Of a stretch of DNA of 64,000 nucleotides, positions 1,445 to 56,592 are shown piece by piece. A program made the position numbers and the translations under genes. Below the pieces are notes generated by a model. It was not told where the DNA came from and searched no databases. It saw only the letters and a list, made by a program, of their open reading frames with translations. Source of the DNA: an uncultured Candidatus Saccharibacteria bacterium (GTDB lineage Bacteria > Patescibacteriota > Minisyncoccia > Phycocordibacterales > CAYSCM01); assembly GCA_964429815.1 (NCBI GenBank), contig CAYSCM010000001.1, positions 224,001-288,000 on the forward strand, given 5' to 3'. The first letter of the stretch is position 1; every line of letters begins with the position of its first letter.

Positions 1445-2977
1445 CTAGGAAACGTGGTAGCGTCCGCGAATTTTTTTTATCTCCTCCCCTTCCGCCTCAG
1501 CCTTTTTCTCTTTACCGCTATCACCTAACTTTTTTAGTTCTGCTTCCGAAAGCTTCACTAATTCTTTCGAACGCGATTCAAGATACTCCGCTGAATTTTT
1601 TTTCGGGTCATCGAGTACTTCTTCCAAAAGTGCGTGCAGAACGAATCCTATTTTTGGCCCGGGCTTTTCATTCGTCACCTCCATTACCTTCACCCCATCG
1701 ATTTTGAGCATGCCCACGGAGATCGGATCGCGCAACGCCTCCTCGACCATCGATTGATATTTACGAAATCGAAAGGGTTGTTCTTTCGGTCGGCCCGTGC
1801 CGATGCGATCACACACGCGCAGATTCATAAGATCCCAAATATTTTCCGGTCCGACATTTCTAATGACGCGACGCACTGCGGAAAGTGTTATTTTTTCTGG
1901 ATCGGAAAAAAACATGTGCCAACGAACAAGCTCCACAACCTTACTGATGGTGTCGCTCGGAAAGCGCAGGTCGGTGAGGATTTTTTTAGTACGCTTCGCG
2001 CCAACTACGTCGTGGCCGTAAAAAGTCCAGTCTTTTTTTTCATCCGACCAGCGTCTCGTCTCCGGTTTAGCTATGTCGTGAAAAAGCCCCGCCAGGCGAA
2101 GATCGAGCGACCACCCTTTATCTGCCGCGTGCTGAAGGGTGCGTAAGTTATGCTCAAAAACGTCGAATTTGTGGGCTTGATTTTGATCTACCCCGATACC
2201 CTGCTCGAGCTCCCCCGCGATGAAGGGCAGGACCTTGAGTTTCTCTGCCAGCCAGAGACCTTGGGCGGGACTATCCGTTTGAAGAATGCGGACAAACTCG
2301 TCTCGAATACGCTCCTTCGATATCTTGGAGAGGCTTCTGGCACTTTGTTCTATGGCTGCCGCCGTCCTCTCTTCTAGAGAGAAGGTAAGGTCGGTCGCTA
2401 TGCGAATAGCGCGAAGCATGCGAAGCGCATCCTCGGCGAAGCGGTCTGCTGGCTCTCCCACTGCACGAACGAGTTTCTTTTTAAGATCCACTTCCCCCTC
2501 AAAATGGTCGACAACCTCTCCGGTATGGGGGTTTAGCGCGAGTGCATTTATGGTGAAATCGCGGCGCTTGAGATCTTCTTCGAGTGTGGCACCAAATTCA
2601 ACCGAATCAGGGCGGCGGGCATCCGAGTACTTCCCCTCCCGTCGGTATGGGGTTACCTCGATAACCTTCAGACGAAGGTCGACGGCCTCCTCGTTCACTA
2701 CCCCCACTGTGCCGAATTCATTGGTGTAGAAGGTATTAGAAAACAACTTCTGTATTTCCTCGGGACGGGCATTCGTCGCCACGTCCCAATCTTTTGGTTC
2801 GCGTCCGAGGAGGAGGTCGCGTACGCAGCCACCGACGATGTAGGCCTCAAAACCGGCCTTTTCTAGGGCTTCAGTGACAGCGAGCACCTCATGTGGGATG
2901 GAAACGTCGTGCGATTTTGGCACCCCTGCATTATACGTGTTTTCCCATAAGCTCACTTTGTCGTAGTATGGCCTCAC
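1445..2977 (-). CDS. cca: CCA-adding tRNA nucleotidyltransferase (PolyA polymerase/HD-domain family) with K/E-rich C-terminal tail
   Basis: 510 aa; head domain GGCVRDLLLG...DWD; HD motif LFHDIAKPETRR; the only in-frame start is GTG at 2977 (alternative GTG at 2956). Confidence 0.85.
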   Translation of the reverse strand: MRPYYDKVSLWENTYNAGVPKSHDVSIPHEVLAVTEALEKAGFEAYIVGGCVRDLLLGREPKDWDVATNARPEEIQKLFSNTFYTNEFGTVGVVNEEAVDLRLKVIEVTPYRREGKYSDARRPDSVEFGATLEEDLKRRDFTINALALNPHTGEVVDHFEGEVDLKKKLVRAVGEPADRFAEDALRMLRAIRIATDLTFSLEERTAAAIEQSARSLSKISKERIRDEFVRILQTDSPAQGLWLAEKLKVLPFIAGELEQGIGVDQNQAHKFDVFEHNLRTLQHAADKGWSLDLRLAGLFHDIAKPETRRWSDEKKDWTFYGHDVVGAKRTKKILTDLRFPSDTISKVVELVRWHMFFSDPEKITLSAVRRVIRNVGPENIWDLMNLRVCDRIGTGRPKEQPFRFRKYQSMVEEALRDPISVGMLKIDGVKVMEVTNEKPGPKIGFVLHALLEEVLDDPKKNSAEYLESRSKELVKLSEAELKKLGDSGKEKKAEAEGEEIKKIRGRYHVS

Positions 2978-2978
2978 T

Positions 2979-3050
2979 GCCCCCGTGGTGAAATGGATAT
3001 CACAACTGGCTTCGGACCAGTTATTGTGGGTTCGAGTCCTGCCGGGGGCG
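2979..3050 (+). tRNA. tRNA-Arg (anticodon TCG)
   Basis: Hand-folded cloverleaf: acceptor GCCCCCG/CGGGGGC, D-stem GTGA/TCAC, anticodon stem ACTGG/CCAGT with loop CTTCGGA, T-arm GTGGG-TTCGAGT-CCTGC, discriminator G; begins 2 nt after the divergent cca start codon. Confidence 0.7.
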
Positions 3051-3205
3051 CAAACGGCACAAAACGCGGTGCATTTTGCGCGTTTGCGCCAGGCGGAGCG
3101 ATGTTTTGCGAGTACACAAAACCGTGAGCCGAGGCCGCGAAAATTCTGAGCGACGACGAAAAACTATTTTTGTGACCGCCTCGGCGTCGGGTGACAGATT
3201 CTAGA

Positions 3206-3233
3206 TTGAGAAAGCACTGACGCGTGCTATAGT
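3206..3233 (+). promoter_or_regulatory. sigma70-like promoter upstream of tRNA-Gly (TTGAGA-16-TATAGT)
   Basis: Sequence match to -35/-10 consensus about 20 nt upstream of tRNA 5' end. Confidence 0.5.
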
Positions 3234-3253
3234 TTCCCCGAAGTATAAAGCAG

Positions 3254-3324
3254 GCGGCCATAGTTTAGTGGTAGGACGGATCCTTGCCAAGGATCAGGTG
3301 GGAGTTCGATTCTCCCTGGCCGCA
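3254..3324 (+). tRNA. tRNA-Gly (anticodon GCC)
   Basis: Acceptor GCGGCCA/TGGCCGC, anticodon stem GATCC/GGATC with loop TTGCCAA, T-arm GGGAG-TTCGATT-CTCCC, discriminator A. Confidence 0.85.
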
Positions 3325-3461
3325 CAAAAGGACACTTCCCTACGGGGTCAGGGAGAATCGAACGGGAAGGGGTCGGGAAACGGCAGTTTCCCGCGGAGGC
3401 GGAGGAAGGCAGGCAAAGCCTCTGGAAAACCTGGGTTTCCAGAGAGTGAGATAGCGGGGCG

Positions 3462-3478
3462 TCTCCCTGGCCGCACAA
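3462..3478 (+). repeat. 17-bp direct repeat of the tRNA-Gly(GCC) 3' end (TCTCCCTGGCCGCACAA); an inverted 15-bp copy of the T-arm (CAGGGAGAATCGAAC) lies at 3340-3354
   Basis: Exact second copy 151 bp downstream of the tRNA 3' end (3311-3327); inverted partial T-arm copy in between. Confidence 0.7.
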
Positions 3479-3633
3479 TACGTAATAAACTTTTCTTACA
3501 TGGCCTGTCTCATAGAAAACTCATAATTTGAGCGTTTCTGTGGATAAATCTGTGAGTATGTGTATTAAGGACAGTCCTATAACCAAAGAATGGCTTTAAA
3601 TCCGTAAAAGTTTCACGTGAAAATTAGTTACAC

Positions 3634-4047
3634 GTGAAAATGTTACATGTGAAATGGCAATCCACAATGAACGAACTGGGAAGACTCGGAGAGGACATTG
3701 TTTGCCGCTATCTTTCTGATAGGGGGTATCGGATTGTTTCAAGGAACTATCGTAAAAAGTGGGGTGAAATTGATGTAATTACGACTAAGGGCGGAATCCT
3801 CCATTTCATTGAAGTTAAAGCTGTTTCGCGTGAAAATCTTGACTCAATTTCACAAGAAACAAATTCCTATCGTCCAGAGGACAATGCTCATCCGGAAAAG
3901 CTCAGACGCCTTGCAAGAACCGTTGAAACATATTTACTGGAAAAAGGTGTAGAAGGTGGGCAGTGGAGATTTGATGTTGCGGCTGTCTATATCGATCAGA
4001 GGAAAAAGAAGGCAAAAGTTTCTCTTCTCGAGAACGTTATTTTATAG
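3634..4047 (+). CDS. yraN: YraN/UPF0102-family endonuclease-like protein (alternative start at 3667)
   Basis: 137 aa; GE(D)IVCRYLSDRGYRIVSRNYR...GEIDVI...FIEVK pattern typical of UPF0102; no clear SD. Confidence 0.65.
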   Translation: MKMLHVKWQSTMNELGRLGEDIVCRYLSDRGYRIVSRNYRKKWGEIDVITTKGGILHFIEVKAVSRENLDSISQETNSYRPEDNAHPEKLRRLARTVETYLLEKGVEGGQWRFDVAAVYIDQRKKKAKVSLLENVIL

Positions 4048-4106
4048 GACATTATTAAGGACATGTCTTTTGGCGCTCAACCGTGCTATGATTTTGCCAA
4101 CCATGG

Positions 4107-4147
4107 GGCGTGGTGTAACGGCTAACATACCCGCGTGGGGAGCGGTT
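4107..4147 (+). pseudogene. partial tandem duplicate of the tRNA-Pro 5' half (acceptor, D-arm and anticodon stem; defective loop GTGGGGA)
   Basis: GGGGCGTGGTGTAACGGCTAACATACCCGC is repeated exactly 60 bp upstream of the intact tRNA-Pro. Confidence 0.55.
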
Positions 4148-4165: not shown

Positions 4166-4238
4166 CGGGGCGTGGTGTAACGGCTAACATACCCGCTTTG
4201 GGAGCGGGCGACTCCCGGTTCGAATCCGGGCGCCCCGA
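4166..4238 (+). tRNA. tRNA-Pro (anticodon TGG)
   Basis: Acceptor CGGGGCG/CGCCCCG, anticodon stem CCCGC/GCGGG with loop TTTGGGA, T-arm CCCGG-TTCGAAT-CCGGG; flanked by a 13-bp complementary extension (CTTCGTCGGGGCG / CGCCCCGACGAAG). Confidence 0.85.
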
Positions 4239-4275
4239 CGAAGCATTTGAATAGACGCGCTTAAGCATGTCTTTT

Positions 4276-6330: not shown

Positions 6331-6561
6331 TCAAGAATATTATGAGCCGATAATGTCGACCTGTGTGAAAAACGTGCGGTGTACGAATTTGAGCCGCGAA
6401 ACGACGGCTTAAAATCGTCAGTGTCTGAAAATAAGTATATAGTGCGCCGTTTTTTGGGCAACAGCTCCTGTGGAGAGAGAAAAATTGACGAAAAGGGCCA
6501 CTATTTCATAATTTCAGCTCCTCCAAACGGAAAAAAACCAAGCAATTCCTTCGTTTTTGCT

Positions 6562-8097
6562 CTATCGGGCGAATTCAATTGCTCGGGACTCCCGAATCAC
6601 GTTTACCTTGATCTCACCGGGGTACTTGAGCTCTTGTTCAATGCGGTTGGCTATTTCACGGGCCAACTTTTTAGCATCGAGGTCGCTCATTTCTTCAGGA
6701 CGAACAAAGACGCGCATCTCGCGGCCAGCTGCGATGGCGTAGCTCTTCTCGATACCGGGGAAGGAGTTGGCGATAGCTTCAAGATCGGTAAGGCGTTTAA
6801 TGTAGTTTTCGACGGAGTCGGAGCGCGCTCCGGGGCGACCGCCAGAAATAGCATCTGCGACCTGTACGATGATCGATTCGAGATTTTCATACGGGTACTC
6901 CTCGTGATGAGCCTGCATGGCCTTGATGATCTCGGGGTCGACGCCGAACTTCTGAAGGATTCGGCGACCGATTTCCACGTGCGTTCCCTGCACTTCATGA
7001 TCGACGGCCTTGCCGAGGTCGTGGAGAAGCGCTCCCGCCTTGGCGACCTGGACGTTGGCCCCCACTTCCTGCGCAATAATGCCCGCAATGTGGGCCATTT
7101 CTACCGAATGCTGCAGGACGTTTTGTCCGTAGCTGGTGCGGAAGTAGAGACGGCCAAGGATCTGAAGAATGCGCGGATCGAGATTGAGAACCCCGCACTC
7201 ATACGCAGCTTGCTCCGCTTTGTCTTTCATTATTTTTCCGATTTCCTCCCGCGCTTTATTGACCATTTCCTCGATCTTCGCGGGCTGAATGCGGCCATCA
7301 ACGATGAGGTTTTCAAGTGCGACACGCGCGATCTGGCGGCGCACGGGGTCGAATGAGGAGAGAGTAATGGTTCCCGGCGTATCGTCGACGATGACATCGA
7401 CGCCGGTTGCTCGCTCGAACGCTTTGATATTGCGACCTTCCTTGCCGATGATCTTCCCCTTCACCTCATCGGAGGGGATAGTGATGGTGGTTGCCATCAT
7501 GTCCGAAGCGACGGAGTTGCCAAAGCGGTGAATGGCGGTCGTAAGGATCTGTTTGGCCTTTTCCTCCAGCTTTTCTTTCCCGCTCATCTCGAGCTTTTGC
7601 ATGCGCACGAGGATGTCGCCCCCGTACTCTTTTTCGACTTCCTTCAGAAGCTCATCTTTTGCGGCATCGCGCGAGAGAGACGCCACGCGTTCGAGTTCGG
7701 CTACCTTGGCTTTCGCCATGTCCTCGACCTTTTCGCGCACCTGTTTCACTTCCGCTATCTTTCCCTTGAGGGCCTCCGCCTCTTTTTCAAGCTCTCCCTG
7801 GCGTTTTTCTATGGTTTCTTCTTTCTTAAAGAGGCGATCTTCGGTCTTTTTGACCTGCTCTTCCTTCTCTTTGACCTCGGCGCGGATCTTCTCGGCTTCT
7901 TCTTCTGCTTTCACCTTTCCCTCGTCGATGACTTTCTTAGCCTGCTCTTTGGCATCGAGCATCATCTTCTTTATCTCGAGCTCCATGGAGCCCTTCCGGC
8001 CGAGCGCGACGAGAAAGCGCAGAAGGTACCCGGCTCCGATGCCAACGAGACCGGCAAGGCCGGCGAGTATGAGTGCTGTGGTTACTGACATATGCAA
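6562..8097 (-). CDS. rny: ribonuclease Y
   Basis: 511 aa; N-terminal TM, coiled-coil, KH domain (IIGKEGRNIK), HD domain (HDLGKA). Confidence 0.9.
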   Translation of the reverse strand: MHMSVTTALILAGLAGLVGIGAGYLLRFLVALGRKGSMELEIKKMMLDAKEQAKKVIDEGKVKAEEEAEKIRAEVKEKEEQVKKTEDRLFKKEETIEKRQGELEKEAEALKGKIAEVKQVREKVEDMAKAKVAELERVASLSRDAAKDELLKEVEKEYGGDILVRMQKLEMSGKEKLEEKAKQILTTAIHRFGNSVASDMMATTITIPSDEVKGKIIGKEGRNIKAFERATGVDVIVDDTPGTITLSSFDPVRRQIARVALENLIVDGRIQPAKIEEMVNKAREEIGKIMKDKAEQAAYECGVLNLDPRILQILGRLYFRTSYGQNVLQHSVEMAHIAGIIAQEVGANVQVAKAGALLHDLGKAVDHEVQGTHVEIGRRILQKFGVDPEIIKAMQAHHEEYPYENLESIIVQVADAISGGRPGARSDSVENYIKRLTDLEAIANSFPGIEKSYAIAAGREMRVFVRPEEMSDLDAKKLAREIANRIEQELKYPGEIKVNVIRESRAIEFAR

Positions 8098-54117: not shown

Positions 54118-54759
54118 ATGAGCGAACAACAGATCGCCAAGCTCGCCGGCGCATTGGTGGAGCACCAACGGCATTTCGGTGCCATGCCAACCGAGGATCG
54201 CCAGTGGGCGATCCAGAATACTGAAGCGGCCATCGGTCTATTCGCCGTTGCAGTGAAGAACCGCGACAACGGCCAGACACAGAAACCAAGGACGCTCTTG
54301 AAGTTCGTGGCGAGCGTAAGCATCGCCGCGATCGAAGGCTTCAAAGTCTCCGAGAACTTCGAGGAGGGGAAGTTGGGCCCGGTCAGAATCTATTGGCTCG
54401 GCGACGACTTCAAGAAGCACTTCGGCCGCAAGACCGAGAGCGCTTTGGAAGCAGTCGAGCTGAAGGTTCACACTCTGACCAAGGCTTCGCTCGATGCCCC
54501 GATCATCGCGGAACTCGCGGGCAATGCGGAGATCACGATGGGCCAGTTCTTCGCTCTGCTATCGAAGCAGGGCAAGGGCGAGAGCGGGCCGCTCCTTACG
54601 AACGGCTACGCCAACATCGCCTACATCCGCGACGACGAGGGCGTCCTATGGGCGGTGGACGCCCACTGGCACGCCGGCCGCGGGGGCTGGGACGTCTACG
54701 CCGACTCAGTCGCCTACCCGGGCGAGTGGGACCGGGGTCGCCAGGTTCTTTCCCGCTGA
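54118..54759 (+). CDS. DGR target (variable) protein, 213 aa, C-terminal variable region; no signal peptide detected
   Basis: The last ~33 codons (VR 54658-54756) are the adenine-mutagenised copy of TR; TR N codons (AAC) correspond to D/H/H/G/R/D/Y/D/A/Y/G/D/R in VR. Confidence 0.8.
   Translation: MSEQQIAKLAGALVEHQRHFGAMPTEDRQWAIQNTEAAIGLFAVAVKNRDNGQTQKPRTLLKFVASVSIAAIEGFKVSENFEEGKLGPVRIYWLGDDFKKHFGRKTESALEAVELKVHTLTKASLDAPIIAELAGNAEITMGQFFALLSKQGKGESGPLLTNGYANIAYIRDDEGVLWAVDAHWHAGRGGWDVYADSVAYPGEWDRGRQVLSR
54658..54756 (+). repeat. DGR variable region (VR)
   Basis: ~100-bp alignment to TR with 16 mismatches, every one an A in TR (A->G/C/T in VR), and no non-A differences; homology ends just after the stop codon. 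Confidence 0.85.
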
Positions 54760-55096
54760 TTCTCGAACCCTTAAGCCCTCGGCCTGAGATCCTTTGACCC
54801 TCTGAAACTTTGCGAAGCAATTTGCGAAGGAGTAGGAGGGTCTTCTATTTTTTATTTTGATATAGTAAGACGTGAGGAGTGCTACTGATGCGGCGGCTAC
54901 GGCTTCCGCACAGCGCCTCGAGTATCTGTATCGCCAGAATCACGTCGGCTAAGGCTTGCGCGAGAGCGCGTGCAGGTACTCTTAAAAAAGATAAAGAATC
55001 GGTGCCTCATGCTGGCGGACTTCAAGGTCCCACATACGATACAGCTCGGAGAGTATTCGATGGGTGGTGTTATTGATGGCTTAAGGCACACAACGG

Positions 55097-55206
55097 ATGG
55101 GCGGTGAACGCCAACTGGAACGCCGACAACGGGGGCTGGAACGTCAACGCCAACTCAGTCGACAACCCGAACGAGTGGAACCGGGGTAACCAGGTTCTTT
55201 CCCGCT
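55097..55206 (+). repeat. DGR template repeat (TR); AAC-rich (11 AAC codons in VR frame); followed by hairpin CCCCGCCCTTCGGCGGGG + TTTT
   Basis: See VR; ORF-track entry 55104-55391 is the TR read in the VR frame, not a gene. Confidence 0.85.
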
Positions 55207-55570
55207 ATTCTTTTCTTCCCCCGCCCTTCGGCGGGGTTTTGCTTTCGAGGCCCCTCTTCCATCCCCCAACCATCCGACCCAGTTCGTGCACTTTTTCCGA
55301 GAGAGCAGCATACCTCTTTGTGTCAAGCGCGCGCAGCTCCCATGCGACTCGTAAAAGGAATTTCGCGGTGTCTATTTTTTTGAGTGTGTGAAAAAGTGTC
55401 GGCACTTTTTCACCCGAGCCCTGATAACTTGCGGTGAAGAGAAGTTCCAGCGTGTCTATGAGCGAAAAGTCGATGCGCTCACCGAGTGTATACCGGGCGT
55501 TTTTTGGAAAGTTGTTCCTGCACTCATGCCAGATTTTATATACTGCAACAGCATGTTCAATAACCGGCAA
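55205..55570 (-). CDS. avd: Avd-like accessory protein (four-helix-bundle / 23S rRNA-IVS protein family)
   Basis: 121 aa; HAVAVYKIWHECRNNFPKNARYTLGERIDFSLIDTLELLFTASY resembles IVS/Avd four-helix-bundle proteins; on the strand opposite TR and RT; stop codon abuts the TR 3' end. Confidence 0.65.
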   Translation of the reverse strand: MPVIEHAVAVYKIWHECRNNFPKNARYTLGERIDFSLIDTLELLFTASYQGSGEKVPTLFHTLKKIDTAKFLLRVAWELRALDTKRYAALSEKVHELGRMVGGWKRGLESKTPPKGGGRKE

Positions 55571-55590
55571 AAGTCGTTGGGGGGGTCGCT

Positions 55591-56592
55591 TTGAGGTCGC
55601 AACTCGCTCATACGTATGACGATATCATCTCGCTAGAAAATCTCCTTGCCGCATGGCAGGAATTCGTGCGCGGGAAGCGCAAAAAATGCGACGTGCAAGA
55701 GTTTCAGTTTCGGCTCGTGGACAATATTCTTGAGCTCTACCGTGACTTGAAAGAGAAAACATACACGCATGGGCCGTACCACCCTTTTAAAATAAGCGAC
55801 CCTAAACCCCGCGACATCCACAAGGCGAGCGTACGCGACCGGCTCCTCCACCACGCAATATATCGGAAACTCTATCCATTCTTCGACAAAATTTTCATTG
55901 CCGATTCGTACTCATGCAGGAAAGGCAAAGGAACACACAAGGCGATGAACCGTTTTCGTTCCTTTGCATACAAGGCGAGCTTAAATCACACAAAAACGCT
56001 TTGGGTGCTCAAGTGCGACATCAAAAAGTTCTTTGCATCAGTCGATCAGCATGTTCTCCTGGAGATTATTAGGCGCTGCATTTCTGACACCGACATCCTC
56101 TGGCTCATCGAGCGAGTCGTGCAGAGTTTCAATCCCAGCAGGGAGGGCACGGGTCTCCCGCTCGGCAATCTCACCTCGCAGCTTTTAGTGAATGTGTATA
56201 TGAACGAGTTTGACCAGTTTGTGAAGCGCACCCTCAAAGCGAAATACTACATCCGTTACGCCGATGATTTTGTGATTTTCTCGCAAGATGCGAAATGGCT
56301 CCAACAAATATGCAAATATATCAGCATATTCTTACGTGAACGGCTGAAACTCGAATTGCACCCTAATAAAGTATCGATCACAACGCTCGCATCCGGTATC
56401 GATTTTCTCGGCTGGGTGAATTTTCCTGATCATCGCGTGCTACGCACCTCGACAAAGCGGCGGATGTTGAAGCGAATGACTGGTGAGCAATCTAAAGAGA
56501 TCATCAAACCGTATTTAGGGCTTCTTCAACATGGGAACAGCAAAAAGCTGCAATTGAAAATCTTGTTTGACACAGCAGAGGCAATCAAGTAA
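55591..56592 (+). CDS. DGR-type reverse transcriptase (TTG start)
   Basis: 333 aa; motifs [45 protein letters not shown] (SQ in place of group-II QG), RYADDFVIF; no maturase/X domain; G-rich RBS. Confidence 0.85.

Follow-up and report, generated by a model that had tools for sequence, protein, structure and literature searches.

The tRNA-Gly(GCC) gene of the window, the 64-kb stretch of DNA analysed here, is followed by a second copy of its own 3' end and by an inverted copy of its T-arm. This raises the question whether the region behind the gene is a scar of integrase-mediated insertion, a structure that serves the tRNA itself, or an element in its own right. A preliminary description of the locus had favoured a scar and regarded the ~135 bp between the direct repeats as a remnant after excision or deletion. 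The distance is correct (134 nt), but the interpretation as a remnant is not upheld: judging from its sequence, the stretch between the repeats is a full copy of a conserved module, which recurs with comparable size in hundreds of loci. We put the probability at roughly 0.6 that positions 3328-3478 represent one integrated copy of a small element, which recombined within the end of the gene and supplied it with a replacement end.

The tRNA-Gly(GCC) gene recognised in the preliminary description is intact (ARAGORN; Rfam tRNA match of 67.9 bits), with the discriminator A at 3324 and without an encoded CCA. The 17-mer TCTCCCTGGCCGCACAA occurs exactly twice in the 64 kb, as an exact repeat of the tRNA 3' end, while the number of matches expected by chance is 0.16 even with three mismatches allowed. 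The left copy begins at the last base of the T loop and ends with three trailer bases (CAA). The inverted copy of the T-arm exists as well, but it had been placed about 9 nt too far upstream, at 3340-3354; CAGGGAGAATCGAAC is located at 3349-3363. It belongs to an 18-nt match with one mismatch (3346-3363 versus tRNA 3304-3321), for which again 0.16 occurrences are expected by chance. By eye, the complementarity reaches back to 3344 with one mismatch and one G.T, such that GGGGTCA (3344-3350) lies opposite the acceptor 3' strand TGGCCGC, GGGAG (3351-3355) lies opposite the T-stem 3' strand CTCCC, and AATCGAAC (3356-3363) complements the T loop.

Together with the right repeat the unit comprises 151 nt, and the 134 nt between the repeats (3328-3461) contain no credible ORF. 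A core of ~100 nt with two hairpins, H1 and H2, is enclosed by a 5' and a 3' arm (Table 1); the second hairpin corresponds to the pair CTCTGGAAA/TTTCCAGAG of the preliminary description, with arms at 3420-3431 and 3433-3444. The position of the short spacer is occupied by a terminator-like hairpin in most family members. The heptamer GTGAGAT, which recurs in copies at many different tRNAs, is an element-specific counterpart of the T loop and could pair with ATCGAAC via tandem G.A. The arms of the window copy form a 12-bp helix of acceptor and T-stem type with one mismatch and one G.U (by eye). Segment 3326-3490 folds at z = -1.9, and the full transcript 3254-3490 at z = -3.9 with the T-arm paired with its inverted copy, a pairing in the precursor that had been suggested before.

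Table 1. Positions of the features discussed in the text (window coordinates, except for L321 and L330).
Feature	Position	Strand	Remark
Promoter-like site TTGAGA, 16 nt, TG-TATAGT	3206-3233	+	upstream of tRNA-Gly(GCC)
tRNA-Gly(GCC)	3254-3325	+	
Left direct repeat: T60, T-stem 3' strand, acceptor 3' strand, A73, CAA	3311-3327	+	
Short spacer, tRNA end to 5' arm	3328-3343	+	
5' arm, inverted copy of tRNA positions 53-72	3344-3363	+	
Conserved core, 5' part: GGGAAGGGGTCGGGAAAC-GGCA-GTTTCCCGCGGAGG	3364-3399	+	motif matches; alignment and fold
Hairpin H1	3374-3381 paired with 3386-3393	+	
Hairpin H2: CTCTGGAAAACC / GGGTTTCCAGAG	3420-3444	+	conserved AAACC..GGTTT hairpin of the family
GTGAGAT, then AGCGGGGCG	3446-3461	+	family consensus of the latter AGCGAAGCG, bulged mini-hairpin
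Right direct repeat (3' arm)	3462-3478	+	pairs with 3344-3356 and closes the module
Module in L321 and L330	~6480-6610		
Recombinase in L321 and L330	6579-8210	-	gene end within ~75 nt of tRNA-Ser-type right repeat
Variable repeat	54648-54757		at 3' end of ORF 54118-54759
Template repeat	55097-55206		85% identical to variable repeat
bAvd	55205-55570	-	
Reverse transcriptase of the diversity-generating retroelement	55591-56592	+	

The tRNA gene and the region between the repeats are probably co-transcribed, as suggested by the promoter-like site upstream of the gene and by the lack, on this strand, of a terminator-like site after the tRNA or after the module up to yraN. The locus belongs to a cluster whose order (CCA enzyme, tRNA-Arg(TCG), tRNA-Gly(GCC), yraN, tRNA-Pro(TGG), tRNA-Gly(UCC)) is kept in 80 related loci, and its CCA-adding enzyme is 71% identical to that of the best species representative. 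The window itself belongs to a member of the Patescibacteria within Paceibacteria, close to Adlerbacteria and Kaiserbacteria. Upstream of the CCA-enzyme gene in these loci (L001-L080) the order Arg-Gly-Pro-Gly is constant, and single tRNA genes flip their orientation between relatives. A partial copy of tRNA-Pro (approximately 4105-4146, about tRNA positions 2-43, anticodon GGG) lies upstream of the full tRNA-Pro(TGG) at 4166-4239, the flanks of which (CTTCGT / ACGAAG) lengthen its acceptor stem. Copies of the 5' half are likewise found upstream of tRNAs in the related loci L010, L037, L045 and L070, and L010, L037 and L070 additionally possess a downstream copy of the 3' half. Just upstream of yraN, an AT-rich region at 3604-3662 contains three tandem repeats of 16-17 nt with a CACGTG palindrome (AGTTTCACGTGAAAAT and variants), which may be an operator or promoter element.

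Comparison with related genomes provides insight into the origin of the additional sequence. The gap between tRNA-Gly(GCC) and yraN is 341 nt long in the window and 133-221 nt long in 13 relatives that lack the repeat. Subtracting the 151-nt unit leaves 190 nt, inside the range of these relatives, so that the inferred size of the empty site fits an insertion. In this respect the earlier interpretation of the direct repeat, a gene-restoring insertion into the tRNA 3' end following att-site logic, is supported. No empty-site allele of the window locus was found among contigs with the same YraN protein, because the only other public contig retrieved by an exact-protein look-up (L345) is 100% identical to the window. 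A free or circular form of the element was likewise not found.

The arrangement is not confined to this gene. In the 80 related Paceibacteria loci, the 3' end (last 14 nt with at most two mismatches) is found again within 320 nt downstream of the gene for 37 of 254 tRNAs, compared to an estimated chance total of ~0.25. Most of these copies lie between +110 and +210, and the T-arm of the gene often occurs in inverted orientation between +25 and +55. Each of the four tRNAs of the cluster possesses such a copy in at least one genome, and a copy always corresponds to the tRNA that it follows. The sequence that separates tRNA and repeat is homologous between different tRNAs and between genomes, and at least four classes that share one layout can be distinguished. 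The window copy belongs to class B, characterised by GGGAAGGGGTCGGGAAAC..GTTTCCCGYGG, the AAACC..GGTTT hairpin and GTGAGAT with or without AGCGAAGCG; the core motifs also pick up tandem copies and copies with a decayed repeat.

A scan of metagenomes for the class B core (AAGGGGTCGGGAAA-N(4-20)-TTTCCCG) revealed at least 124 modules in at least 120 loci. Among the matches listed, 76 modules lie at most 136 nt after a tRNA gene on the same strand, and these tRNAs represent 38 anticodons; the tRNA 3' end (last 12 nt, at most two mismatches) recurs right after the core in 60 of the 76. The usual order is tRNA, terminator-like hairpin, 5' arm, core and 3' arm. The arm matches the functional tRNA including the T loop, and the right-hand copy usually has GTGAGAT in place of GTTCGAAT. 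At orthologous tRNAs the occurrence is patchy, and most orthologous tRNA-Gly(GCC) loci lack the module. Overall, dozens of tRNAs and, in addition, protein genes are associated with this compact unit of 110-200 nt, and tandem arrays of units are present. To judge by these sequence matches, the family is abundant in Patescibacteria and non-coding, with a class B size of ~150-250 bp. Contig L240 possesses modules at different tRNAs with the same core variant, which points to a recent spread in which the arms would have been rewritten.

Modules of different classes are also nested or arranged in tandem behind one and the same tRNA (tRNA-Gly(GCC) in L079, tRNA-Met in L282, tRNA-Asp in L240). A class-B-like core without a tRNA nearby lies between the exonuclease III and CCA-enzyme genes of L020 (2540-2680, minus strand), where a 680-nt GC-rich spacer may hold further elements.

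Class B cores also occur at protein genes. We observed them at the 5' end of rplK (L297, where the repeat of ~65 nt ends at the start codon), in the N-terminal G1 motif of fusA (L293), at the stop codon of rplL (L259 and L290, with a 24-nt inverted copy directly after the gene end), at the 3' end of a further gene (L310) and at other sites. Where the arrangement is clearest, the first 9-24 nt of the repeat reappear in the arm as their reverse complement. Among the matches listed, about 20 of the 37 non-tRNA copies with enough flank display a repeat of 11-53 nt in this placement (exact-match scan), and in several non-tRNA copies the repeat is present and the arm absent. The intact gene is always located 5' of the module, and the repeat always extends to the gene end. 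The sequence of the arms is arbitrary at these sites, being that of the gene, and some modules are oriented antisense to it.

The two copies flanking a module are not always duplicates. In the fusA case the two copies are identical over 24 nt, beyond which both still resemble coding N-termini but have diverged from each other; behind tRNA-Glu in L281 the terminator after the tRNA differs from that after the right repeat, and the changes keep the hairpin paired. Such divergence is expected if the left end arrived with the element, and agrees with recombination inside a conserved stretch by an element that carries a gene end of its own. In L288 and L271 the identity of the right flank runs 51 nt past the tRNA end. 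The variable length of the repeat, this extended identity of the right flank and the copies without arms do not fit a single fixed cutting geometry.

The module is a conserved structured nucleic acid whose helices are kept by compensatory changes. The class A fold is a three-way junction in which 14 of 23 pairs are changed on both sides, and a G.U in its helix P3 is invariant. For the outer H2 stem of class B, anchored counts give 80% Watson-Crick pairs versus 36% in a partner-shuffled control, with 42 distinct stem sequences. The consensus obtained for class B with MAFFT and RNAalifold recovers H1 only, because the arms and the optional hairpins misalign.

The substitution pattern leaves room for both RNA and DNA as the folded molecule. 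Mismatches in the arm helix P1 were at first sight suggestive of G.U wobble and thereby of RNA, a signal that is gone under symmetric scoring: P1 contains 12 mismatches of G.U type and 9 of A.C type, and the internal hairpins contain 22 and 20, respectively, among ~2190 pairs. Stems that are almost purely Watson-Crick and lack an excess of G.U are unusual for a conserved RNA family. Such stems are consistent with a hairpin of DNA, and so is the recurrence of the heptamer GCGAAGC, an exceptionally stable DNA mini-hairpin. Conversely, on the tRNA-sense strand 64 of 123 copies have an H1 loop of GNRA type and none has one of the complementary type, and these loops, like the invariant G.U in P3 of class A, point as much to RNA as to DNA. 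Loops and junctions are also purine-rich on the tRNA-sense strand. We conclude that the strand that folds is the tRNA-sense strand, either as RNA or as single-stranded DNA.

Integration of a small element can be reconciled with this anatomy as follows. The unit would consist of a replacement gene end, a spacer that often holds a terminator-like hairpin, a reverse-complement 5' arm, a core with multiple hairpins and a 3' arm, and would insert in the manner of Campbell integration, by recombination within a short sequence that it has in common with the target gene. To the left, the intact gene would then carry the end supplied by the element, and the original end, in the window the right repeat, would be displaced to the right of the core. 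In a free circle the core would be followed by repeat r, the spacer and the reverse complement of r, which would adjoin the core again; with the core between them, the two arms would pair, and the resulting stem would match the target duplex in sequence. Attachment sites that function as folded single strands are known from the attP of the CTX phage and the attC of integrons, and by analogy the folded stem may act as the attachment structure of a single-stranded intermediate. One strand exchange between stem and target, followed by replication, would yield L-r-spacer-rc(r)-core-r-R, the order observed. Strand exchange of this kind would regenerate the target, which would explain the tandem arrays, and would likewise account for an element-supplied end on the left and a native end on the right. 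The enzyme would have to act in trans, as none is encoded in the unit.

The parallels to the CTX attP(+) of the XerCD/dif system and to attC extend to several details: one end of the insert holds two inverted target-like copies at a distance of ~90-130 nt, next to which the target is repeated directly, the stem rebuilds a target-like duplex, the target is regenerated such that tandem arrays can accumulate, and the product predicted for a single strand exchange has the layout found here. By contrast, the present element targets the ends of tRNA and protein genes and not dif or attI, and the sequence of its stem changes with each target while that of its core is conserved. The T-loop part of the element bears only a loose resemblance to the R''/R' consensus of attC: ATCGAAC and GTTCGAT fit the boxes RYYYAAC / GTTRRRY at six of seven positions by eye, and copies outside tRNAs lack such boxes. 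The inverted arms flank a centre of variable length. No association with an integron integrase, attI or cassette ORFs was found; the neighbours are housekeeping genes without a recurrent recombinase.

It is also conceivable, but at this stage speculative and rather improbable, that the module is a self-contained, nucleic-acid-guided integration device, in which the arms read both strands of the target and the core recruits a host enzyme or one provided in trans. In some respects the module resembles the bridge (seek) RNAs of IS110/IS1111 elements, which share a constant non-coding scaffold, segments matching both target strands and a changeable specificity. Their guides, however, are located in internal loops and address adjacent half-sites, and they are accompanied by a neighbouring DEDD recombinase gene and a 2-nt duplication, all of which are absent here. 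An IS110-type bridge RNA was rejected as an identification, given that no ORF adjoins the module and that the arms are terminal and paired with each other.

Alternatively, the module might be the gene of a structured non-coding RNA that is co-transcribed with the tRNA and functions at the RNA level, which would not preclude mobility. At tRNA sites, the stem that closes the module corresponds to the "top half" of acceptor and T-stem, with the discriminator protruding as a 3' tail, so that maturation by RNase P, RNase Z or the CCA-adding enzyme could be envisaged, or arms that pair like guides with both target strands. The promoter-like site in front of the tRNA and the missing terminators are in line with such a gene, as are the strand bias of the GNRA loops and of the purine-rich loops and junctions, the invariant G.U of class A, the 12-bp helix of the window arms and the fold of segment 3326-3490. 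Against this stand the absence of a G.U excess over A.C in P1 and in the internal hairpins, the patchy occurrence at orthologous tRNAs, and the protein-gene sites with their arbitrary arms and antisense modules. Because of these arbitrary arms, tRNA mimicry cannot be the general function, and a role as a "tRNA top-half mimic" was discarded. Rfam 15, searched with E-value cut-offs of 1 to 10 for the window, five class A/B loci and L020, returned only tRNAs and no match to the module. We regard an RNA gene as distinctly less likely than an integrated element.

A classical att scar, in which a phage or island with a tyrosine integrase entered the 3' end of tRNA-Gly and was later deleted except for ~135 bp, appears quite improbable. 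The locus does bear the hallmark of tRNA att sites, a direct repeat of the tRNA 3' end flanking an insert behind an intact gene; repeats that, like this one, start in the T loop are reportedly typical of tRNA-targeting integrases in the Williams 2002 classification. Rare copies also possess cargo between tRNA and module, namely 2.4 kb with an RHH gene in L041 and more than 6 kb of restriction-modification genes in L330. However, the same compact unit is found at dozens of tRNAs and at protein genes, and independent deletions would not all have stopped at the same recurring boundaries. Almost all copies are without cargo, and a search for further cargo-bearing copies found none. Pfam and PHROGs identify only the RHH protein in the L041 cargo, without any match to an integrase; neither within the 134-nt insert nor beside family members was an integrase found, and the search for an integrative element with a matching attP, which the preliminary description had suggested, yielded none. 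Moreover, lambda-type attP arms are not known to include the target in inverted form at ~100 nt from the crossover.

Integrated small elements of the kind proposed here do share with tRNA-targeting integrative elements, including cis-mobilisable derivatives of CIME type, which lack an integrase and are flanked by att sites, the direct repeat of the tRNA 3' end, the restored gene and the lack of a recombinase in the unit. Like CIME-type elements they reside in hot spots that are common to other mobile DNA, as a serine recombinase adjoins the repeat in L321 and L330. They differ in their size of only ~150 bp, in the conserved structured core, in the inverted copy of the target within the unit, and in that one core occurs at at least 38 tRNA types and at protein genes. 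The large serine recombinase was found in two to three loci, convergent to the repeat in L321 and L330 and inside restriction-modification islands; we judged it to belong to a separate element that uses the same tRNA-Ser hot spot. The island of L330 contains type I and EcoRI-like restriction-modification genes, and no tRNA lies within 6.5 kb. Beside the modules no recurrent recombinase, reverse transcriptase or nuclease was found, and clustering of the neighbouring proteins gave housekeeping families only.

Comparably improbable is the spread of a SINE-like retroposon, the transcript of which would be copied into nicked targets by a reverse transcriptase acting in trans and would generate target-site duplications that vary in length; in genomes as tiny as these, survival would be limited to insertions in which the duplication extends across the end of the gene. 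This would be in agreement with a repeat that varies in length and always reaches the gene end, and with the probable transcription of the module together with the tRNA. The window also encodes a reverse transcriptase with bAvd, as part of a diversity-generating retroelement at 54118-56592. Reverse transcriptases of diversity-generating retroelements, however, are, as far as known, specific for their own template RNA, and no reverse transcriptase of any kind recurs near the modules. The left and right copies can be diverged homologues (L293, L281) and not duplicates, and target-primed copying alone does not create an inverted arm fitted to every new target. A chance resemblance of the repeats or a structure for pre-tRNA processing specific to this locus, favoured by the fold of 3254-3490, is of negligible probability given the expectation of 0.16 for either repeat and the absence of the module from most orthologous tRNA-Gly(GCC) loci; its patchiness there and its presence at other tRNAs and unrelated protein genes likewise speak against a tRNA-processing structure conserved in relatives, which the preliminary description had named as the finding that would overturn an insertion.

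Other small mobile sequences offer partial parallels to an integrated element. PATEs (derived from IS200/IS605), Rickettsia palindromic elements and MITEs are likewise ~100-200 bp long, non-coding, rich in hairpins, dispersed in small genomes and tolerated in or next to genes. By contrast, the present element has neither fixed terminal inverted repeats nor a target duplication of fixed length; its ends are derived from the target, and its insertion duplicates a gene end. A MITE was rejected because the arms differ with each target, because the repeat spans 11-53 nt in the exact-match scan, and because identity of the right flank can extend up to 51 nt beyond the tRNA.

As far as we could find in Rfam 15, cultured phages, plasmids and the literature searched, the family is apparently uncatalogued and undescribed. 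BLAST against cultured phages and plasmids produced no match to the element. Viral contigs contained one real array of copies, of class A (L083), the other 15-mer matches being mostly due to chance, and a longer class A pattern had no match in them. The array (IMG/VR contig 3300033463_005745, positions 2880-3319) consists of tandem class A modules and fragments at the contig edge; the contig is labelled viral, yet its neighbouring genes look cellular (SGNH hydrolase, cytidine deaminase, GalE). Literature searches, which included the core sequence, returned no description of the element, and none was found in the 224-motif paper. [quoted passage not shown]

What looked like a routine att scar is thus one copy of an abundant family of elements. 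By duplicating gene ends, importing foreign ones and building tandem arrays, these elements both change the genomes of Patescibacteria and give rise to annotation artefacts, such as pseudo tRNA fragments and displaced N- or C-terminal fragments. A near-constant core combined with arms that match tRNAs of 38 anticodons and essential protein genes makes target recognition by base pairing a testable idea. If the module does work as a guided device, changed arms would retarget insertion to any conserved gene end, and the smallest bacterial genomes would harbour a programmable integrative element free of protein genes; arms that direct integration would be of interest for programmable DNA insertion.
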